Below are positions 25,213 to 56,566 of a stretch of DNA of 64,000 bases, in pieces. The position numbers were made by a program, and so were the translations under genes. Source of the stretch: a virus (Duplodnaviria; Caudoviricetes); the IMG/VR virus record IMGVR_UViG_3300042516_002489, positions 506-64,505 of that record; one strand, given 5' to 3'. A model generated the notes under the pieces. That model searched no databases, had not been told where the DNA came from, and saw only the letters and a list, made by a program, of their open reading frames with translations. Within the stretch, counting starts at the first letter, position 1. Every line of letters starts with the position of its first letter.

Positions 25213-25392
25213 ATGATGACTCGTAAAGACTATGTAGCAGTTGCTGAAATTCTTTCATCGTATAAAGATTTAATCGGTGATGAATTTACTTTTGAGGATT
25301 TGGTAGAGGATTTTTCTGGAATGTTTGAAGCAGATAATCCAAATTTCAAACATGAAATATTTAGAGAAGCGTGTTTAAAAAATAATTTCTAA
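25213..25392 (+). CDS. Small phage protein (MTRKDY...ADNPNF type)
   Basis: Manual translation, 59 aa, immediately after the 25006 gene. Confidence 0.65.
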   Translation: MMTRKDYVAVAEILSSYKDLIGDEFTFEDLVEDFSGMFEADNPNFKHEIFREACLKNNF

Positions 25393-25401
25393 ATAAAAAA
25401 A

Positions 25402-25428
25402 ATCCTGAGCAAGATCTAAAACTGCTCA
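25402..25428 (+). ncRNA. Pseudoknot motif copy (family of 7)
   Basis: ATC-CTGAGCAA-GAT-CTAAAAC-TGCTCA. Confidence 0.6.
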
Positions 25429-25959
25429 AAGTAAGCCCGGCGTGTCGTCCACAGGTTGTGAATAACCTTACGTACGATGTGATTTTTGTCACAGAGTTTA
25501 CGTACCACTATTTGAGATTCGCAGGCTTTCGATTAGATTTTTGTCGGTGGAGCATGATAGGATATTTATATCAACTAAAGAAAGAAGGTCTCCCATGAAC
25601 CTAGATGAATTCAAGTCTCACGTTCAAGCCCAACGTGAAGCAAGCAAGGCAGAAGCCTTGTCGGTACTATCTGCTAAGATTATTGTAAAGAAAGAAGGCA
25701 ACTAATGGATACTTGTATTGCTTGTAATGAAAACGCTGTAAGTGTTACCGAACTATATTGCTACCCTTGCTATCTTGACCGAGAGTTAGAAGCGATGATA
25801 GAATCAGACTATATCAACCAACTATTTTTGACGAAAGAGGCTAACTAATATGGATTTCTATGACGACTACTATGAAACAGATATGCTACGCCCAGACGCT
25901 AAGTCTTGCTATTGCAAACTTCATTCAATTTGTACTAACTGCACGGAAGGATATAACTA

Positions 25960-26175
25960 ATGGAATACTCATACTCAATTACCGCTACCTATGATAACGA
26001 GGTTGCACCTTACTTCGTTGGTCGCTACGACAATGCTATCTCTGCCGTTACAGAGTGGAACAAGATTGTAGATTGGGGATTTGCAGATGAATATGCAACC
26101 TACAATTTCTCAGAGCCTAGTGGCAAGATGCACACTAAGATATTTTATCGTAGTGGAAAGGTTGGGGGTAAGTAA
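25960..26175 (+). CDS. Hypothetical early protein
   Basis: 71 aa, RBS AAGGA. Confidence 0.65.
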   Translation: MEYSYSITATYDNEVAPYFVGRYDNAISAVTEWNKIVDWGFADEYATYNFSEPSGKMHTKIFYRSGKVGGK

Positions 26176-26313
26176 TGAGCGACCTAACCTATTGTGAAAT
26201 TTGCTATCGTAACTTACAAGATGAAGAGTTTAATTACTTTTTTGAATATCCAGTCTGCTTAGAATGTGCAGATGAACAAGAACTAGCCCTACTACTACAA
26301 GGAGTAAAATAAT

Positions 26314-26598
26314 ATGGGAAGCATAACAGCGTTAGGACTACAAGACACCGTACTAGATTTAGAGACTCAGATTCTCTACCACCTCAAGGGTAATCACTAT
26401 CCACCAGTACCCGCAGAAATGGTACAACCTTGCATAGATGCTATTGACGCATACTATGACGAGGACTATGACCGCATGATTGATATGCCTATGGTAGGGG
26501 ACTTTCAGATTCTATACCGTGGAGAAACTCAAGCACCTGCAAGGGCTATCGTAGACCAGCACCACTTATCATTCTGGCTACCTGATTGGGAGGACTAA
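26314..26598 (+). CDS. Hypothetical early protein
   Basis: HLKGNHYPPVP...C..AI and IVDQHHL motifs; RBS AAGGAG. Confidence 0.7.
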   Translation: MGSITALGLQDTVLDLETQILYHLKGNHYPPVPAEMVQPCIDAIDAYYDEDYDRMIDMPMVGDFQILYRGETQAPARAIVDQHHLSFWLPDWED

Positions 26599-26809
26599 TG
26601 TATTCTCTATGGGTTGGCGGCAGCGAGTTAAACTCTAACTATCTTACTAGACGAGATGCAGAGTATTGGGCGCAAGAGATGATTGAAATGGGATATGACG
26701 ATGTAATTGTAGAGGGTCCACTATGATTGATTTAACTATCCCCCACTCAAAATATTGCGATTGCCAGGAGTGCATTGATATGGAAAAAGAGATATATGGA
26801 GATGAGTAA

Positions 26810-27049
26810 ATGACTGCTACAATGGAAACTATGAAATTTGTATACGCAGATCTGCTAACACCATCCCAACTGATGGAAGGCGACCTAATTAATATTGATG
26901 ATGATATCGTAGAGGTGTTGTCCGTTGTAGATGATGCAACAGGGGATAACTATACTATTTTACATCGCAATGATTTTGGTGAAGAAGAAGAAACCTTTTG
27001 CACCTTTGAGGACATGTTCAAACTCTACGTATTTATAGAAGAGGATTAG
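26810..27049 (+). CDS. Acidic small beta-barrel protein
   Basis: L.EGDLI.IDDDIVEVLSV pattern (KOW/SH3-like). Confidence 0.6.
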   Translation: MTATMETMKFVYADLLTPSQLMEGDLINIDDDIVEVLSVVDDATGDNYTILHRNDFGEEEETFCTFEDMFKLYVFIEED

Positions 27050-27124
27050 CGAGGCCGGGGCGTGTGAGATTGATCACAGCCTTACGATTTGACATTTTTA
27101 GTCTGATAGTGCTAGAATTGATTT

Positions 27125-27277
27125 ATGAGCACACAGAAAAGCCCCGAGGAATTACGCAGACTTATGGAACTTCGCCGTTCTAATGCTGCTTCTGCCGTGC
27201 CTTCTAAAAAAGTTTATTCTCGCAAGGGCAAGAAAAGTCAGTCCCTTCTGCTAGAATTAAAAAAAGAAAGTGAGTAA
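27125..27277 (+). CDS. Small basic leaderless protein
   Basis: Manual translation MSTQKSPEELRRLMELRRSNAASAVPSKKVYSRKGK...; ATG 6 nt after TTGACA-N18-TAGAAT. Confidence 0.55.
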   Translation: MSTQKSPEELRRLMELRRSNAASAVPSKKVYSRKGKKSQSLLLELKKESE

Positions 27278-27281
27278 ACCC

Positions 27282-28004
27282 ATGACCCAACTAAAACGCT
27301 CTAAAGATAGAAAGGTGGCTAACCTTGTCACAAAAAACGGAAAGCAAGCCGCAATTGCAAATACATTCGGACTACCTGCAGGAAAAAACTATTCATGTCC
27401 TGGCGCTACGACTGTCTGCGAAACTGTTTGCTACGCAGGCAAATTGGAAAAGATATTCCCAACCGTAAAGGTAAACCTTCTACATAATTGGGAATTGCTA
27501 CGCAATGCAAACTTTGATACAATGCAGACTTTGCTATCAGACATGATAGATGAGTTTATTGTTGATTGCGAAAAGAAAAATGCACCTAAGTTATTTCGTA
27601 TTCACTGGGATGGCGATTTCTTCAATGATACTTATACTAACGCATGGAAATTCGTAATTGAAAAAAACCCTGATATTCAATTTTGGGTATACACACGAGT
27701 AAAGTCTGCAGCCCTTATCCTAAAAGATATTGATAATCTCTCACTATACTATTCAACTGATAGCGAAAATAAGGCTATTGGTATTGGTCTCAAGACTGAA
27801 CATGGTGTTCGCCTTGCATACCTTGCGAAGAACTTTGCAATTGGTCAGGCAGACATGAAGGAACTAACTTCAAAGCCTGGCGCTAAGTGTCCTGAAAACC
27901 TAAAAGCCATTCCACTAATTAGCAATGCAGGCTCTGCATGCGTGTCTTGTTCACTTTGCGTATTCAATAAGGCAGATATTGTATTCTCTGCAACTAAGAA
28001 ATAA
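27282..28004 (+). CDS. Gp88-like (radical-SAM-related, Cys-containing) phage protein
   Basis: FGLPAG...SCPGAT..C..VCYA, RIHWDGDFF, WVYTR and C-terminal CP...C..C.LC motifs. Confidence 0.75.
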   Translation: MTQLKRSKDRKVANLVTKNGKQAAIANTFGLPAGKNYSCPGATTVCETVCYAGKLEKIFPTVKVNLLHNWELLRNANFDTMQTLLSDMIDEFIVDCEKKNAPKLFRIHWDGDFFNDTYTNAWKFVIEKNPDIQFWVYTRVKSAALILKDIDNLSLYYSTDSENKAIGIGLKTEHGVRLAYLAKNFAIGQADMKELTSKPGAKCPENLKAIPLISNAGSACVSCSLCVFNKADIVFSATKK

Positions 28005-28229
28005 TATTTCATGAATACGTGGATGTGGATCTTACTATGGTTACTGATTCTGTTTATGTATCAGTGACTTAGTAGGCCCGGCGCAAAAAAGTCGATTTGT
28101 CAAGTTACGACACGCCTTTAAGATGTGGGGTTTATCACACCCAGAACGCCCTCTAGGATTTGATATTTATTATATTTTTTGCTAAAATTATACTATAAGC
28201 AAAACCACCACGATAGAAAGGCAATAAAA

Positions 28230-28400
28230 ATGACACTAAGCGGATACACTTACCAAATCGGTGATTTATTCACAACAAGCAAGACAGGCGTTACTGGGCG
28301 CATCACAGATTTTAGTCCAATAAATGCTAAACTAACTAGAGTTTCATTACGCTTGGCAAACGGCGCACACCGCTTTGCTATGGTAAAGACTTCTAAGTAA
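28230..28400 (+). CDS. Small SH3-like protein (tandem paralog A)
   Basis: YQIGDLFTTSKTGVTGRIT; RBS GAAAGG. Confidence 0.65.
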   Translation: MTLSGYTYQIGDLFTTSKTGVTGRITDFSPINAKLTRVSLRLANGAHRFAMVKTSK

Positions 28401-28493
28401 TCTCAAAATATGAGATTATTTCCCAATGGATTTGTATTTCCGAGATTTTTCGGATATACTAGAAATATAACCAACAACAGAAAAGGAAAAAAA

Positions 28494-28655
28494 ATGACAG
28501 TAGCACAAGCACTATACAAGGTCGGCGACACTTACACATCACAGAAGTCAAAGGTAACTGGCACAATTACAGAAATCAAGCCAAACGCTAACGGCACAGT
28601 TCGTGTGAAGTTAGATGTTGCAGGTGCAACACGCTGGACAACTTGGAAGGCGTAA
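28494..28655 (+). CDS. Small SH3-like protein (tandem paralog B)
   Basis: YKVGDTYTSQKSKVTGTIT; RBS AAAGGA. Confidence 0.65.
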   Translation: MTVAQALYKVGDTYTSQKSKVTGTITEIKPNANGTVRVKLDVAGATRWTTWKA

Positions 28656-28664
28656 GCCTTTCAT

Positions 28665-28732
28665 AGTCGCCAATGTACAGCGACTCTAAATAAGTGGCAG
28701 GAACGAACCTGAGCAAGTTCCAAAAAGGCTCA
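28665..28732 (+). ncRNA. Structured RNA: hairpin/pseudoknot plus pseudoknot-family copy
   Basis: AGTCGC..GCGACT stem, then GAAC-CTGAGCAA-GTTC-CAAAAAG-GCTCA. Confidence 0.55.
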
Positions 28733-28797
28733 TCACAAAAGTCAGACCCACCCCCTATAATAGAAATATAACCCACCAAAGAAAAGGAAAAAACACA

Positions 28798-29223
28798 ATG
28801 GCAACAAGAGGAAAAGCAATCTCAGTAAAAATCGCAACACCAAAGGTAATCAAGGCACTAGAAGCATCACTCGCTAAAATTGAAGCAGACTACGCATCAC
28901 AAGAAGCAAGCGAAGCAAAGTATCAGAAGGCTATGGAAAAGTATAGAAAAGAACTTGGTGCATTTGCGGTAAAGCATATCGCTAAGGCAGAAAATCTACG
29001 CTCATCATATCGCTCGTGGAATAATCAACTAAACATTGACTTTGACCTAACAGTTACTAAGGACTCGCTTCCAACTGAACCTGAGCGTGATTTCGTATCA
29101 TTGAACGAATACGAATATCGTAATCAGAAAGAGGAGATTGCAAACGCAATTCGTATCCTTAAAATGACCGACGAGGAAGTTGTAAATACTTCCACATACA
29201 ATGCGGTGGCTCGCTATCTCTAA
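28798..29223 (+). CDS. Hypothetical coiled-coil early protein
   Basis: 141 aa, strong RBS, PafBC-type promoter at 28740. Confidence 0.75.
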   Translation: MATRGKAISVKIATPKVIKALEASLAKIEADYASQEASEAKYQKAMEKYRKELGAFAVKHIAKAENLRSSYRSWNNQLNIDFDLTVTKDSLPTEPERDFVSLNEYEYRNQKEEIANAIRILKMTDEEVVNTSTYNAVARYL

Positions 29224-29230
29224 TAAAATG

Positions 29231-29483
29231 TAGATATGTCCTCTGGCAACACGATATATCTGTCTGCAACCTGAGCAAGTTGTAAAACTGCTTCACAAGT
29301 TTCGCCAGGCTGATTAGGGCGATTATAGAAATACTATAGAGCAAGGTTACTGCAGACCTAAAGAAGCAGACCACCTGAGTAAGTGCCAAAACTGCTCATC
29401 AAATTTCACAAGAACCATACGCATGGATATTAGTTCCATATACATGGTAGTGAGAGTTCCTGATCATGAACTAAAACTGATCA
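29231..29483 (+). ncRNA. Tandem pseudoknot/hairpin RNA array
   Basis: Three family copies (29266, 29372, 29455), two variant pseudoknots (29302, 29344), two hairpins; no credible ORF. Confidence 0.6.
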
Positions 29484-29608
29484 CATTTGCCCCGGCCCAG
29501 GTGACCAAGATCACATCTCATTATGTAGGATAGGACCTTTACGTGTTGCATTTGTCAGCCCCCTCTGCTAGAATTATATTATTACCAAAGAGAAAGAAGG
29601 AAGCCCCT

Positions 29609-30106
29609 ATGGGATTAGATATGTATCTCAGCGCTAAGAAGCATTTAGAAAAAATCAACTGGAAAGCCTTGCAAGATAATAATGAATTATCTTATTCATC
29701 TCCTGAAGCAGTCTATCCAAAATTCAATGACCTAATGGAATTGACACAACTATCAGATGTTGCAACAGATATCTACGGAGCAAGTGTAGAGGTAACCTGT
29801 GCCTACTGGCGCAAGGCTAATCAGATACACGCTTGGTTTGTAAGAGAAATCCAAGGTGGCGAGGATAACTGTGGTGACTACTATGTATCACAAGATAAAC
29901 TAATAGAGTTGCTAGCACTATGTAAGCATGCCCTAGAAACTAAAGACCCTAGCCTATTTCCACCGCAGGCAGGATTTTTCTTTGGTGGTACAGACATTGA
30001 TGAGTGGTATTGGAATGACCTAAAGAATACTATTAGTCAACTAGAGCGTATCTTTGCTCTACCTGAAATTGATAAGTTATCATTCTATTACTCATCATCT
30101 TGGTAA
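29609..30106 (+). CDS. Phage protein (MGLDMYL...YWRKANQIH.WF type)
   Basis: Recognisable motifs including GFFFG...DEWY and FYYSSSW; RBS AAGGAAG. Confidence 0.75.
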   Translation: MGLDMYLSAKKHLEKINWKALQDNNELSYSSPEAVYPKFNDLMELTQLSDVATDIYGASVEVTCAYWRKANQIHAWFVREIQGGEDNCGDYYVSQDKLIELLALCKHALETKDPSLFPPQAGFFFGGTDIDEWYWNDLKNTISQLERIFALPEIDKLSFYYSSSW

Positions 30107-30171
30107 TTGACATTTGTCAGTGGCCACTAGTACAATTGAATACATATACCAACTAACAGAAAGAGGCCCCC

Positions 30172-30603
30172 ATGGACCAAACAGTAATAAATGCAACAAA
30201 TGAATTCCTTCAGACACAGATTAGTGCACTGCAGGAAGCAATTGAAAAGAAAGATTTAATGATTGTTTCACTACAAGACCGTGCATCCCAAAATTCACAA
30301 CGTGAATATGCAACTGCAGCATCAATGAACAAATTGCGTGATGACATGCAAGAGTGGACATTGGGTCAACTTGGCAATGGCCAACTTACAGAATCACAAG
30401 CAGAAGAAATTGCAGAGATTTGCGGGTTTGACCTTACCAAGGAAGTTGAAGTTGAAGTTAGCGTAACTTATAACCTGACCGTAAACGTTCCTTATGATGA
30501 GGACGTTGAATCAATTGTAAATGATATTGATTTTGAATCAGTGTCATATAATTCTGACAACATCACTTGGCTTACCGCTTCAGTTGACAGGGTTGATTTT
30601 TAG
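30172..30603 (+). CDS. Hypothetical acidic protein
   Basis: 143 aa, RBS GAAAGAGG. Confidence 0.7.
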   Translation: MDQTVINATNEFLQTQISALQEAIEKKDLMIVSLQDRASQNSQREYATAASMNKLRDDMQEWTLGQLGNGQLTESQAEEIAEICGFDLTKEVEVEVSVTYNLTVNVPYDEDVESIVNDIDFESVSYNSDNITWLTASVDRVDF

Positions 30604-30680
30604 TAGGGGGCTACTAAAAGACATGTCGAATGTCTTTAAACTAGGCAAGGGACCTGAGCATTGTCCATGTAAACGGCTCA
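30601..30680 (+). ncRNA. Hairpin plus two pseudoknots at operon 3' end
   Basis: TAGTAG-GGGG-CTACTA; AAAGAC..GTCTTT-AAAC-TAGGCA; GGAC-CTGAGCATT-GTCC-ATGTAAAC-GGCTCA. Confidence 0.55.
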
Positions 30681-30843
30681 CTTTTTATTTCTAAAACCCG
30701 GCGTGTCGTGATCAAGATCACATTGTGAATTACGACACATTACAAAAATGTCCGATTTACCCCATATCTAACTAGCCTGATTTGCATATGTCGGTGGCTC
30801 ATGTTATGATTGTACTAACAAACAAACAGAAAAGAGAAAACTC

Positions 30844-31866
30844 ATGGCACATGACCTAGAAACACAAAACGGAAAAACATCTTTTGCATCTTTCCGTGAA
30901 CCTGCATGGCATGGATTGGGTACCGTATTCACAGAGGAAAAAACAACCGTTGAAATGCTGGAAGCAGCAAATCTAAATGGTTGGAATGTTCGTCTTGAGG
31001 ATTTGGAAACCCCATCACATCTAACAAGCGACAAGTCATACCAATATGTCTTGCGTACAAATCCTACCGATAACACCCAGACCGATATTCTCGGCGTAGT
31101 TGGTGAGCGTTATCATGTATTGCAGAATGAGGATTTATTTTCATTCGGTGATAATATCCTAGACGGCGGTGGTCGTTGGGAAACCGCTGGCTCAATCAAG
31201 GGTGGTCGTGTTGTGTTCGGTGCATTAGCACTAGAGCGTGAAACAATCCTAGACCCTAACGGCGTAAGTGATAAGGTAAAAACTTATTTGCTTATCAACA
31301 CATCACACGATGGCTCAATCGCTATTCAAGCAAGCATAACACCCGTTCGTGTTGTGTGCGCTAATACTCTCAACCTTGCTCTTGGTGGCGTAGGTCGTAA
31401 GAAAAATAAAGGCATCAAGCAATCATTCAAGATTCGCCACACACAAACTGCAAATGGTAAAGTGCAGATTGCTCGTGAGACTCTTGGTCTTGCTAATGCT
31501 TACATGGATGAATTTGATATTATGGCTAAGGCTATGATTGAAAAAGAAGTCAATGCTCTTGATTTCAACAAAATCATTCTCGCCGCATATCCTAAGCCAG
31601 AAAAAGATGCTAAGGGTTCAATCAAGAAGTGGGAAAATAAAGTTGATGTTATCAACGATATTTACACTGGTGAATTCAATGGCATGATTGCTGGCAATGC
31701 GTGGGGTGCTTTCAATGCACTTACTGAGCGCCTTGATTGGTACCGTTCTGCTCGTGGTGGTTCTAACGAATCTATCCTTGCAAGCGCAAGCGGATTTGAC
31801 CCTGCTATCAACGCAGAAAAAAATCGCTTACTAAAAGTTGTGCAAGGCGTAATGTCTCTCGCATAA
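30844..31866 (+). CDS. DUF932 / TIGR03299 phage-plasmid protein
   Basis: REPAWHGLG, LGVVGERY..LQN, ETAGSI.GG, NTSHDGS, TPVRVVCANTL, IRHT motifs. Confidence 0.9.
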   Translation: MAHDLETQNGKTSFASFREPAWHGLGTVFTEEKTTVEMLEAANLNGWNVRLEDLETPSHLTSDKSYQYVLRTNPTDNTQTDILGVVGERYHVLQNEDLFSFGDNILDGGGRWETAGSIKGGRVVFGALALERETILDPNGVSDKVKTYLLINTSHDGSIAIQASITPVRVVCANTLNLALGGVGRKKNKGIKQSFKIRHTQTANGKVQIARETLGLANAYMDEFDIMAKAMIEKEVNALDFNKIILAAYPKPEKDAKGSIKKWENKVDVINDIYTGEFNGMIAGNAWGAFNALTERLDWYRSARGGSNESILASASGFDPAINAEKNRLLKVVQGVMSLA

Positions 31867-31871
31867 TAAAA

Positions 31872-31899
31872 TATCCTGAGCAAGATAAAAAACTGCTCA
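31872..31899 (+). ncRNA. Pseudoknot motif copy directly 5' of tRNA-Asp
   Basis: TATC-CTGAGCAA-GATA-AAAAAC-TGCTCA. Confidence 0.6.
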
Positions 31900-31905
31900 C
31901 CATTT

Positions 31906-31982
31906 GGTTCCGTAGTTTAGTTGGTTAGAACGCTACCCTGTCACGGTAGAGGTCGTGGGTTCAAGTCCCATCGGAGCCGCCA
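31906..31982 (+). tRNA. tRNA-Asp(GTC)
   Basis: Cloverleaf GGTTCCG/CGGAGCC, anticodon arm CTACC-CTGTCAC-GGTAG, TTCAA T-loop, encoded CCA. Confidence 0.95.
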
Positions 31983-32138
31983 AAGTAATCTCAAGATCTT
32001 GCGGGCCGGTCTCTATAACATTTTGTTACAAACCTTATTACGGTAGTATGATATTTTTCCCAAATCTCTATTACGGGACTTGCTATTTTTTCCCAGTTCG
32101 GGTACAATTAATATATACCTACTAACCAAAGGACCACC

Positions 32139-56423: not shown

Positions 56424-56566
56424 TTACTTTGATCCCTTTGCTCTTTGCCCTCTATAGCCAGTCTTTTTCTTATTCATAGAGCCTGGCTTTTTATACCCTG
56501 CCCCTGCTGGTGTTGCAGCAATTCTTTGCTCCAAAGCTTTCTTAATTTTATCGTTATGCTTTCCCA

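Follow-up and report, generated by a model that had tools for sequence, protein, structure and literature searches.

The window analysed here is a stretch of 64,000 nucleotides (nt) of viral DNA (positions 506 to 64,505 of IMG/VR record IMGVR_UViG_3300042516_002489), taken from a virus record of 64.5 kb that is approximately 60% complete and has a G+C content of 37%. Between positions 25402 and 31899 it carries seven copies of a short element, all on the + strand, which is predicted to fold on its own into a compact H-type RNA pseudoknot of approximately 30 nt, its two interleaved helices being backed by covariation. Stem 1 has 4-5 pairs and is free in sequence except for a closing C-G pair; loop 1 is a single C, loop 2 comprises 1-2 nt and loop 3 is A-rich and ends in AAAC. 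Stem 2 follows the pattern U-R-R-R-Y-A with its complement, and is usually UGAGCA/UGCUCA. An initial annotation of this DNA had described the seven copies, and their starting positions, strand and stem pairings were all seen again in the window.

Copy 1 (25402-25428) starts 9 nt past the TAA stop codon of an open reading frame (ORF) at 25213-25392. Its stem 1 is formed by ATC and GAT (25402-25404 with 25413-25415), loop 1 is C25405, stem 2 pairs TGAGCA (25406-25411) with TGCTCA (25423-25428) and loop 3 reads CTAAAAC; it scores 49.9 bits (E = 8.6e-13) against R1, a covariance model built from 91 copies with those of the window among its seed. Copy 2 (28705-28732; stem 1 GAAC/GTTC; 38.6 bits) is found 49 nt past the stop codon of an ORF at 28410-28655, and a promoter-like site starts at 28732. 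The 3' arm of its stem 2 reads GGCTCA, giving five pairs (TGAGC/GCTCA). The next three copies all fall within an ORF-free stretch at 29224-29542. Copy 3, the foremost (29266-29295; stem 1 GCAAC/GTTGT; 38.6 bits), carries an additional base in stem 2, whose 3' arm reads TGCTTCA; copy 4 (29372-29398; stem 1 CAC/GTG; 39.6 bits) has the stem 2 TGAGTA/TGCTCA with one U-G pair; and copy 5 (29455-29483; stem 1 AGTTC/GAACT; 37.8 bits) has TGATCA/TGATCA, a compensated G-C to U-A change relative to the others, and is followed by a CCCCGGCCC element and then by a promoter-like site. These three copies are packed into approximately 220 nt; the surrounding 320 nt contain no ORF of at least 45 amino acids and could give rise to a set of small non-coding transcripts, each with a pseudoknot at its end.

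Copy 6 (30650-30680) has GGAC/GTCC as stem 1, TT as loop 2 and ATGTAAAC as loop 3. It is the lowest scoring of the seven (24.3 bits, E = 3.5e-5), its 3' arm GGCTCA again gives a five-pair stem 2 (TGAGC/GCTCA), and it is followed by CTTTTTATTT, which resembles a terminator U-tract. Copy 7 (31872-31899; stem 1 TATC/GATA; stem 2 TGAGCA/TGCTCA; 52.8 bits) starts 5 nt past the double stop of a DUF932-like gene (30844-31866, + strand; phrog_1221, PF06067) and ends 6 nt before tRNA-Asp (anticodon GTC; 31906-31982, + strand), so that its placement directly before this tRNA is as initially annotated. The distance from one copy to the next ranges from 83 to 3300 nt. Promoter-like sites of the form TTGTC(G/A)...TAnnAT follow copies 1, 2, 5 and 6, and the tRNA follows copy 7.

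When the whole window was searched with R1 with the filters off, exactly the seven copies were returned (E = 1e-13 to 3.5e-5), the next match having E = 0.21. A scan for the full architecture likewise gave these seven along with two weak extra matches, one of which overlaps copy 5. The heptamer TGAGCAA by itself is not enriched in the window (13 matches against 13.2 expected), whereas a two-part composite pattern is (5 matches against 0.42 expected, a number that none of 100 shuffles reached). Terminator-like hairpins are not in excess between 22 and 36 kb (11 against 8.9 in shuffles).

Some other structures and repeats were noted around the copies. A small ordinary hairpin, TCTCA-AAATA-TGAGA followed by TTATTT, is present after an ORF ending at 28400 (28401-28460), and two more, TAGTAG-GGGG-CTACTA and AAGACAT-GTCGA-ATGTCTT, precede copy 6 (30604-30649); as such hairpins occupy other 3' untranslated stretches, the pseudoknot is not the sole structure at gene ends. 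A 33-nt direct repeat (2.1 copies, 80% match) lies at 32029-32095, just downstream of tRNA-Asp. Several of the pseudoknots are also followed by another repeated intergenic module, which consists of a CCCGGCGTGTCG-type element (the 'CCGG motif' of the initial annotation) and, after it, a promoter-like TTGTC(G/A)GTGG...TAnnAT, with sites at 25434-25560, 27053-27118, 28077-28130, 29488-29580 and 30696-30810. Loose matches to the CCCGGCGTGTCG-type element number eight in the window against 2.4 expected, and a CCCGGCGTGTC(G/T)TCCACAGG string follows pseudoknots in other contigs also. This second module may be an operator or regulator site.

In order to collect the element elsewhere, viral and bacterial collections were scanned with two patterns, both of which left stem 1 unspecified; its pairing in the matches is therefore an unbiased test of the fold. 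Besides the closing C-G, stem 1 had two or more further pairs in 81 of 82 unique viral matches and in 98 of 104 unique bacterial ones. When the 3' partner was slid by two columns, pairing was retained in only 7/82 and 32/104, respectively. A second assessment used an alignment of 132 model matches, 130 of them distinct, in which stem 2 was not part of the model. Here the interleaved structure is 93.0% paired as against 79.3% in shuffles, with none of 500 shuffles reaching the observed value, and sliding the helix partners lowers pairing to 27-40%. All four stem 1 pairs covary on both sides, one of them being UA in 73 matches, AU in 48, CG in 4 and GC in 1.

Stem 2 varies far less, but it too shows compensatory changes. 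Among the 130 distinct matches, three of its internal pairs have no unpaired cells and the fourth has one; at the two terminal pairs, which fray, 20 and 18 cells are unpaired. At three internal pairs the compensations are GC to AU (5 copies), GC to AU (2 copies) with one UA, and CG to UA (4 copies, with UG in 28), and the fourth internal pair is compensated in single copies (TGGGCA/TGCCC and TAGGCA/TGCCTN). At the orthologous site between the DUF932-like gene and tRNA-Asp, where 80 close relatives could be compared, the variants TAGGCA/TGCCTN, TAGACA/TGTCTA and TAAGCA/TGCTTC occur, as well as a TAGGCA/TACCTG that carries a C.A mismatch. In the stem 2 variants seen, U stands first and A sixth, and positions 2-4 are purines in all but one of them (TGATCA); this pattern looks like a structural constraint more than base-specific reading. 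Both helices thus compensate, and the covarying pseudoknot proposed in the initial annotation is borne out.

The alignment also indicates which strand folds. Wobble G.U cells outnumber A.C cells by 50 to 16, or by 40 to 1 when the outermost stem 1 pair is left out, from which we conclude that the folded strand is the sense strand. Several unpaired bases are conserved: the loop 1 C and the AAA of loop 3 are each present in 132/132 matches and the C that follows in 116/132, while loop 2 is variable (A 70, T 48, C 11). In H-type pseudoknots such conserved unpaired bases are at the positions expected for loop-helix triples, and a loop 1 of 1 nt crossing six pairs along with a loop 3 of 5-7 nt crossing 4-5 pairs is sterically compatible with both helices forming together.

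The element is not special to the phage of the window, and it is spread more widely than could be seen when the window was annotated. In IMG/VR at least 118 contigs match the exact pattern with free stem 1 (131 matches among those listed), and at least 118 bacterial or archaeal contigs of a one-genome-per-species collection match a slightly looser pattern. As labelled, the latter come from many Saccharibacteria and other Patescibacteria, Aminicenantes, Cyanobacteria, Clostridia and other Firmicutes, and further from Bacteroidia, Acidobacteriota, Actinobacteria (including a Nocardia nova isolate), several Proteobacteria and one Bathyarchaeia bin. A rough estimate that assumes uniform base composition gives fewer than one chance match for the viral scan and approximately eight for the genome scan. 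At E <= 0.01, R1 finds 236 copies in 100 viral loci (955 kb in total), and five bacterial genomes, with 150 candidates scored in each, gave 1, 1, 1, 3 and 1 copies. A BLAST search of cultured phages with a 37-nt copy gave 12 records; the two that were checked with the model, Mycobacterium phage Labelle (Patiencevirus) and Paracoccus phage ParMal1 (Autographiviridae), have one copy each, that of Labelle being at 56437-56471. The same query gave no convincing match among plasmids, BLAST being too insensitive for this motif, and megablast of the region against phages matched the tRNA alone.

We conclude that the element is well supported as an RNA family and is a strong candidate for a new one. 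Rfam 15 scans gave no credible match to any copy, in agreement with the initial annotation, which could assign it to no known family: in the window (gathering thresholds, and E up to 10) no copy was overlapped except by a chance snoRNA match at E = 4, and in 23 bacterial loci (gathering thresholds or E <= 1) no family matched the motif. Searching the literature by the letters of the motif, which gave only unrelated primers, or by words returned no description of it, supplementary candidate lists being outside this search. Likewise, the motif is not described in the portions available to us of PMC5737381, PMC10690425 and a 2026 bioRxiv preprint. Of these, PMC10690425 is a survey of structured RNA candidates drawn from IMG/VR, with 8495 listed; its main text, as far as available, describes no such pseudoknot. 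One of its candidates, DNAVirus_1850, was reported 27 times, with one occurrence overlapping a tRNA-Asp, and it could be the same element.

The genomic placement of the element was assessed for 272 copies from 118 sources. In 116 of the 118 sources all copies lie on a single strand, and only 2/272 copies are inside a same-strand ORF of at least 100 amino acids (12/272 for opposite-strand ORFs of that size). The distance to the upstream stop codon has a median of 11 nt, with a mode of 4-9 nt (105 of 178 unique contexts), and the stops are strongly biased: TAA accounts for 109/134, TAG for 20 and TGA for 5, while among 1236 background ORFs the numbers are 673, 249 and 314. There is no clear preference for any frame relative to the upstream ORF (77/61/40 in the 178 unique contexts). 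The window copies precede promoter-like sites or a tRNA, as would suit their original description as operon 3' ends; in the relatives, however, many copies sit between two cistrons with no space for a promoter, and over the whole set the downstream promoter signal is weak (score of at least 11 in 10/249 downstream against 0/249 upstream regions).

A tRNA is no more than 10 nt away from 44 of the 272 copies, and in 39 of these cases it is tRNA-Asp. This adjacency is one synteny block, in which the DUF932 gene, the pseudoknot and tRNA-Asp are conserved in the relatives, the pseudoknot being 3-11 nt before the tRNA in 80/80 close relatives. The DUF932-like family phrog_1221 is accordingly the commonest protein directly upstream (32 of 150 distinct proteins, with at most six others matching any PHROG at E = 1e-5), and beyond this synteny in one phage group no recurrent gene family was found beside the element. 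The bacterial flanking proteins, most of which have no Pfam match, are diverse and look like those of mobile elements (resolvase, recombinase, integrase, DUF3768, DUF932, DUF2958 and Mu gpT). In one bacterial locus, L180 (1-162, - strand), the element abuts, at 0 nt, the 5' end of a DUF2800 RNA (RF02960, 120.9 bits); by eye, L135, L142, L167, L234, L007, L068 and L103 share the downstream sequence of this locus.

A conserved micro-ORF of approximately 19-24 codons was also noted beside the element in approximately 20 bacterial loci (among them L128, L131, L137, L139, L150, L158, L169, L177, L181, L203, L210, L218, L223 and L227). It is equipped with promoter-like and Shine-Dalgarno sequences of its own and stops at a TGA within stem 2 of the pseudoknot, and its product reads M-K-(R/K)-(F/Y)-x-(V/I/M)-P-R-x-A-H-C-(S/D/K)-(E/D/S)-G-C-x-x-x-S; synonymous changes indicate that it is coding. 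The gene that precedes it in L139 and L169 has, as read from the translations, a C-terminus resembling mercuric reductase.

The phage itself probably has a freshwater actinobacterium as its host, judging from its gene content: its portal and DUF932-like proteins have 46-53% identity to Streptomyces phage counterparts, and the window encodes WhiB, GP88 and DUF932 domains, a class II ribonucleotide reductase and six tRNAs, along with several glycosyltransferase and epimerase genes. In IMG/VR the DUF932 protein has relatives in 466 stretches, the best 80 at 91-98% identity, and this phage group is abundant in freshwater.

The sequence immediately downstream of the element is distinctive. At +1 and +2 the base is C or A and G is rare (1-3%); this G-poor spacer leads into positions +4 to +8 that are 42-48% T. 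A run of four or more T residues occurs in the first 12 nt after 61 of 234 unique copies, compared with 6/234 in a control window at +21 to +32, and a run of three or more follows 104/234 (44%). The T-run is commoner where the next start codon is distant (27/67 when it is more than 100 nt away, 12/73 when it is within 45 nt); before a tRNA it is present in 9/42 copies. In bacteria the signal is weaker, at 20/109 against 10/109. A natural replacement was also seen. In Streptomyces phage NootNoot the DUF932 homologue is followed by CCCCCTA-loop-TAGGGGG, ATTTTGG and a CCCCGG element, that is, by a canonical terminator, and the model finds no pseudoknot copy in this phage (best E = 0.58). At the same position the relatives of the window have the pseudoknot, then AATTTTGG, then a CCCGG element.

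The T-run statistics, the position just past stop codons and the NootNoot terminator together point to a module for mRNA 3' ends. The reading that we tentatively prefer, although we would stop somewhat short of calling it probable, is that the pseudoknot forms and protects such ends, as a terminator where a U-tract follows and as an exonuclease barrier elsewhere. The element would be built into the mRNA just past the stop codon of a gene and, where a U-run lies 2-3 nt downstream, the pseudoknot would stand in for the terminator hairpin of intrinsic termination. Should transcription instead continue into a further cistron, a tRNA or a structured RNA, processing would leave the pseudoknot at the 3' end of the upstream mRNA, this end being made by RNase P cleavage at the 5' end of the tRNA or by an endonuclease. 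There it would block 3'-to-5' exonucleases and stabilise the upstream cistron. From this arrangement of sequence features we infer that the pseudoknot may both terminate transcription and block exonucleases; among the functions first suggested for it, a roadblock or processing signal fits the post-stop position, the T-run and the NootNoot terminator, and an antitoxin mimic or decoy found no support.

A number of observations weigh against this interpretation. A clear T-run, of four or more residues, follows only about a quarter of the copies. Those that lie 3-11 nt before tRNA-Asp or 20-40 nt before the next start codon cannot be efficient terminators, as the conserved tRNA-Asp placement and the intercistronic placement require that transcription continues past them. 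The terminator replacement rests on the single case of NootNoot. The hairpins that could form by nested pairing are weak (-4 to -7 kcal/mol, z-scores of -3.5 to +0.6), so that any barrier function must rest on the predicted tertiary fold, and H-type pseudoknots are known mainly as barriers to machines coming from the 5' side rather than the 3' side. The main weakness is that a mechanical role does not obviously account for a near-constant stem 2 and near-constant loops, combined with a free stem 1, all the way from phages of Actinobacteria to Saccharibacteria, Cyanobacteria and Firmicutes.

It is possible, though we think it rather unlikely, that the pseudoknot represents a new tiny RNA class shared by mobile elements of many phyla, which RNA polymerase or the terminating ribosome reads as a translation-sensing terminator or insulator, such that each small early gene is a self-contained expression unit; or else that it acts as a ribozyme of minimal size or, like a sponge, sequesters a host defence factor. 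If it were read by a conserved machine, or had a chemistry of its own, it would be among the smallest widespread functional RNA classes.

The tight spacing from stop codon to stem 1 invites a more specific proposal, that of a translation-coupled regulator in which the pseudoknot is an attenuator gating termination, Rho access or downstream initiation. A ribosome terminating at the stop codon would cover the 5' arm of stem 1, so that folding would signal whether the preceding ORF is translated. At 4-9 nt in 105/178 contexts, the distance equals the spacer of frameshift pseudoknots, and the bias towards TAA, the T-runs after many copies and the approximately 20 bacterial loci where the micro-ORF stops inside stem 2 (L128 having a run of seven T residues after its pseudoknot) would also fit. 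However, five of the seven window copies lie at least 42 nt from any stop codon, frame preference is not apparent, and no extended ORF crosses the element. The stops, moreover, are strong TAA codons that are often doubled, indicating that read-through or frameshifting is not the aim. On balance we regard an attenuator as unlikely. Programmed frameshifting or read-through as such was considered and rejected: the spacing fits, but the preponderance of TAA, the frame distribution and the near absence of copies within ORFs do not.

Conservation of the unpaired bases could instead mean that the element is bound by a conserved protein or machine, such as a ribonuclease, RNA polymerase, ribosomal protein S1 or a transcription factor, which would read the loops and stem 2 as a processing or insulation signal. 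Across phyla there is almost no variation in the loop 1 C, the closing C-G or the loop 3 AAA, the first two bases past the element are hardly ever G, and the element abuts other RNAs (tRNA-Asp in the relatives and the DUF2800 RNA of L180). The same conserved bases, however, are those expected to form loop-helix triples, and the tolerance of stem 2 for compensated changes at its internal pairs speaks for shape rather than base-specific reading. Neither is there a recurrent protein family that could be the partner, as no more than 38 of the 150 upstream proteins match any PHROG, 32 of them from one family, and the bacterial flanking genes are diverse. A dedicated reader of this kind therefore seems to us quite unlikely.

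A self-cleaving ribozyme, or a decoy, sponge or aptamer carried in several copies by mobile elements (an antitoxin mimic, a mimic of the tRNA acceptor arm or a small-molecule binder), is in our opinion a poor prospect. The distribution does resemble that of small ribozymes, since the element is found in phages and mobile elements of many phyla, is intergenic, occurs several times per phage and is not linked to any gene, and conservation over multiple phyla together with a pseudoknot are the criteria for 'sophisticated' RNAs in the part of PMC5737381 available to us. The stacked helix of approximately 11-12 pairs may also recall a tRNA acceptor/T arm. Against this, there are no spare conserved unpaired bases for a catalytic core or binding pocket, loop 2 varies, nothing among the ribozymes, riboswitches and antitoxins of Rfam gave a match up to E = 10, and tandem arrays are absent. 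A decoy, furthermore, would not need the tight link to stop codons, and CCA follows the element in only 12/187 viral copies away from tRNA and 3/109 bacterial copies. A tRNA-like structure of the turnip yellow mosaic virus (TYMV) type was rejected on the same CCA counts.

Finally, although the copies flank small genes of obscure function in a region of many short units, although this alternation of gene and element resembles the attC-like layout discussed in the part of PMC5737381 available to us, and although covariation is blind to RNA as opposed to DNA of the same strand, it is highly improbable that the element is a single-stranded DNA structure acting as a recombination or cassette-boundary site, like attC or the promoter/stem-loop cassettes of T4, because its strand always tracks gene direction, G.U-type cells, which are less favourable in DNA, are frequent, the U/T-run and stop-codon spacing are features of transcripts, and the element is single in T7-like and Patience-like phages.

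If the pseudoknot does form and protect mRNA 3' ends, then across phages and mobile elements of many phyla such ends would be made by a pseudoknot instead of a hairpin, and would escape both terminator predictors and Rfam. Transcription units in uncultured phages could then be annotated better, and a 30-nt portable insulator would be available for synthetic biology. The family can be tested in cultured systems, namely the phages of Mycobacterium smegmatis and Paracoccus.

Several known systems invite comparison. Like the type III antitoxins ToxI, CptI and TenpI, with which the initial annotation had compared it, the element is a small pseudoknotted RNA in a setting of phage-host conflict. However, type III antitoxin RNAs form tandem repeat arrays beside a toxin gene, whereas the copies found here are dispersed and single, with no recurrent neighbour. 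Tandem Repeats Finder detected no array of the motif between 24000 and 33000 of the window, and no toxin gene was recognised beside the copies, whose flanks are diverse (25 of the 61 Pfam families of the window ORFs were inspected). As the element is spread over many phyla with 1-3 copies per bacterial genome, nothing points to one toxin family, and with no Rfam match either the antitoxin mimic or decoy found no support.

With the luteovirus frameshift pseudoknots, such as that of beet western yellows virus (BWYV), and with preQ1-I aptamers, the element shares a stem 1 of 4-5 pairs, a very short, C-containing loop 1, a 1-nt junction, an A-rich loop 3 beside stem 2 and a total length of approximately 30 nt. 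It differs from them in having six pairs in stem 2 and in lying after stop codons with neither a slippery site nor a link to frame. Nor are there queuosine genes nearby, and the preQ1-like reading found no support: there is no Rfam preQ1 match and the downstream genes are diverse.

The candidates of PMC10690425, so far as that survey was available, come from the same IMG/VR collection as the element. Its position recalls intrinsic terminators and the hairpins that stabilise 3' ends, being after the stop codon, co-oriented with the gene and often followed by a U-run and then by the next promoter. Unlike in those, the structured part is no G+C-rich hairpin but a pseudoknot, conserved in sequence, in which two short helices interleave; most copies have no clear U-run and many are inside operons or directly before a tRNA. 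Further likenesses are to the mobile cassettes of T4 type, which combine an early promoter with a stem-loop, and to the RNase III sites of T7, which are also repeated intergenic modules that flank small early genes and shape the ends and stability of transcripts. Those modules, however, are hairpins of one phage group, whereas the pseudoknot described here is shared across phyla.

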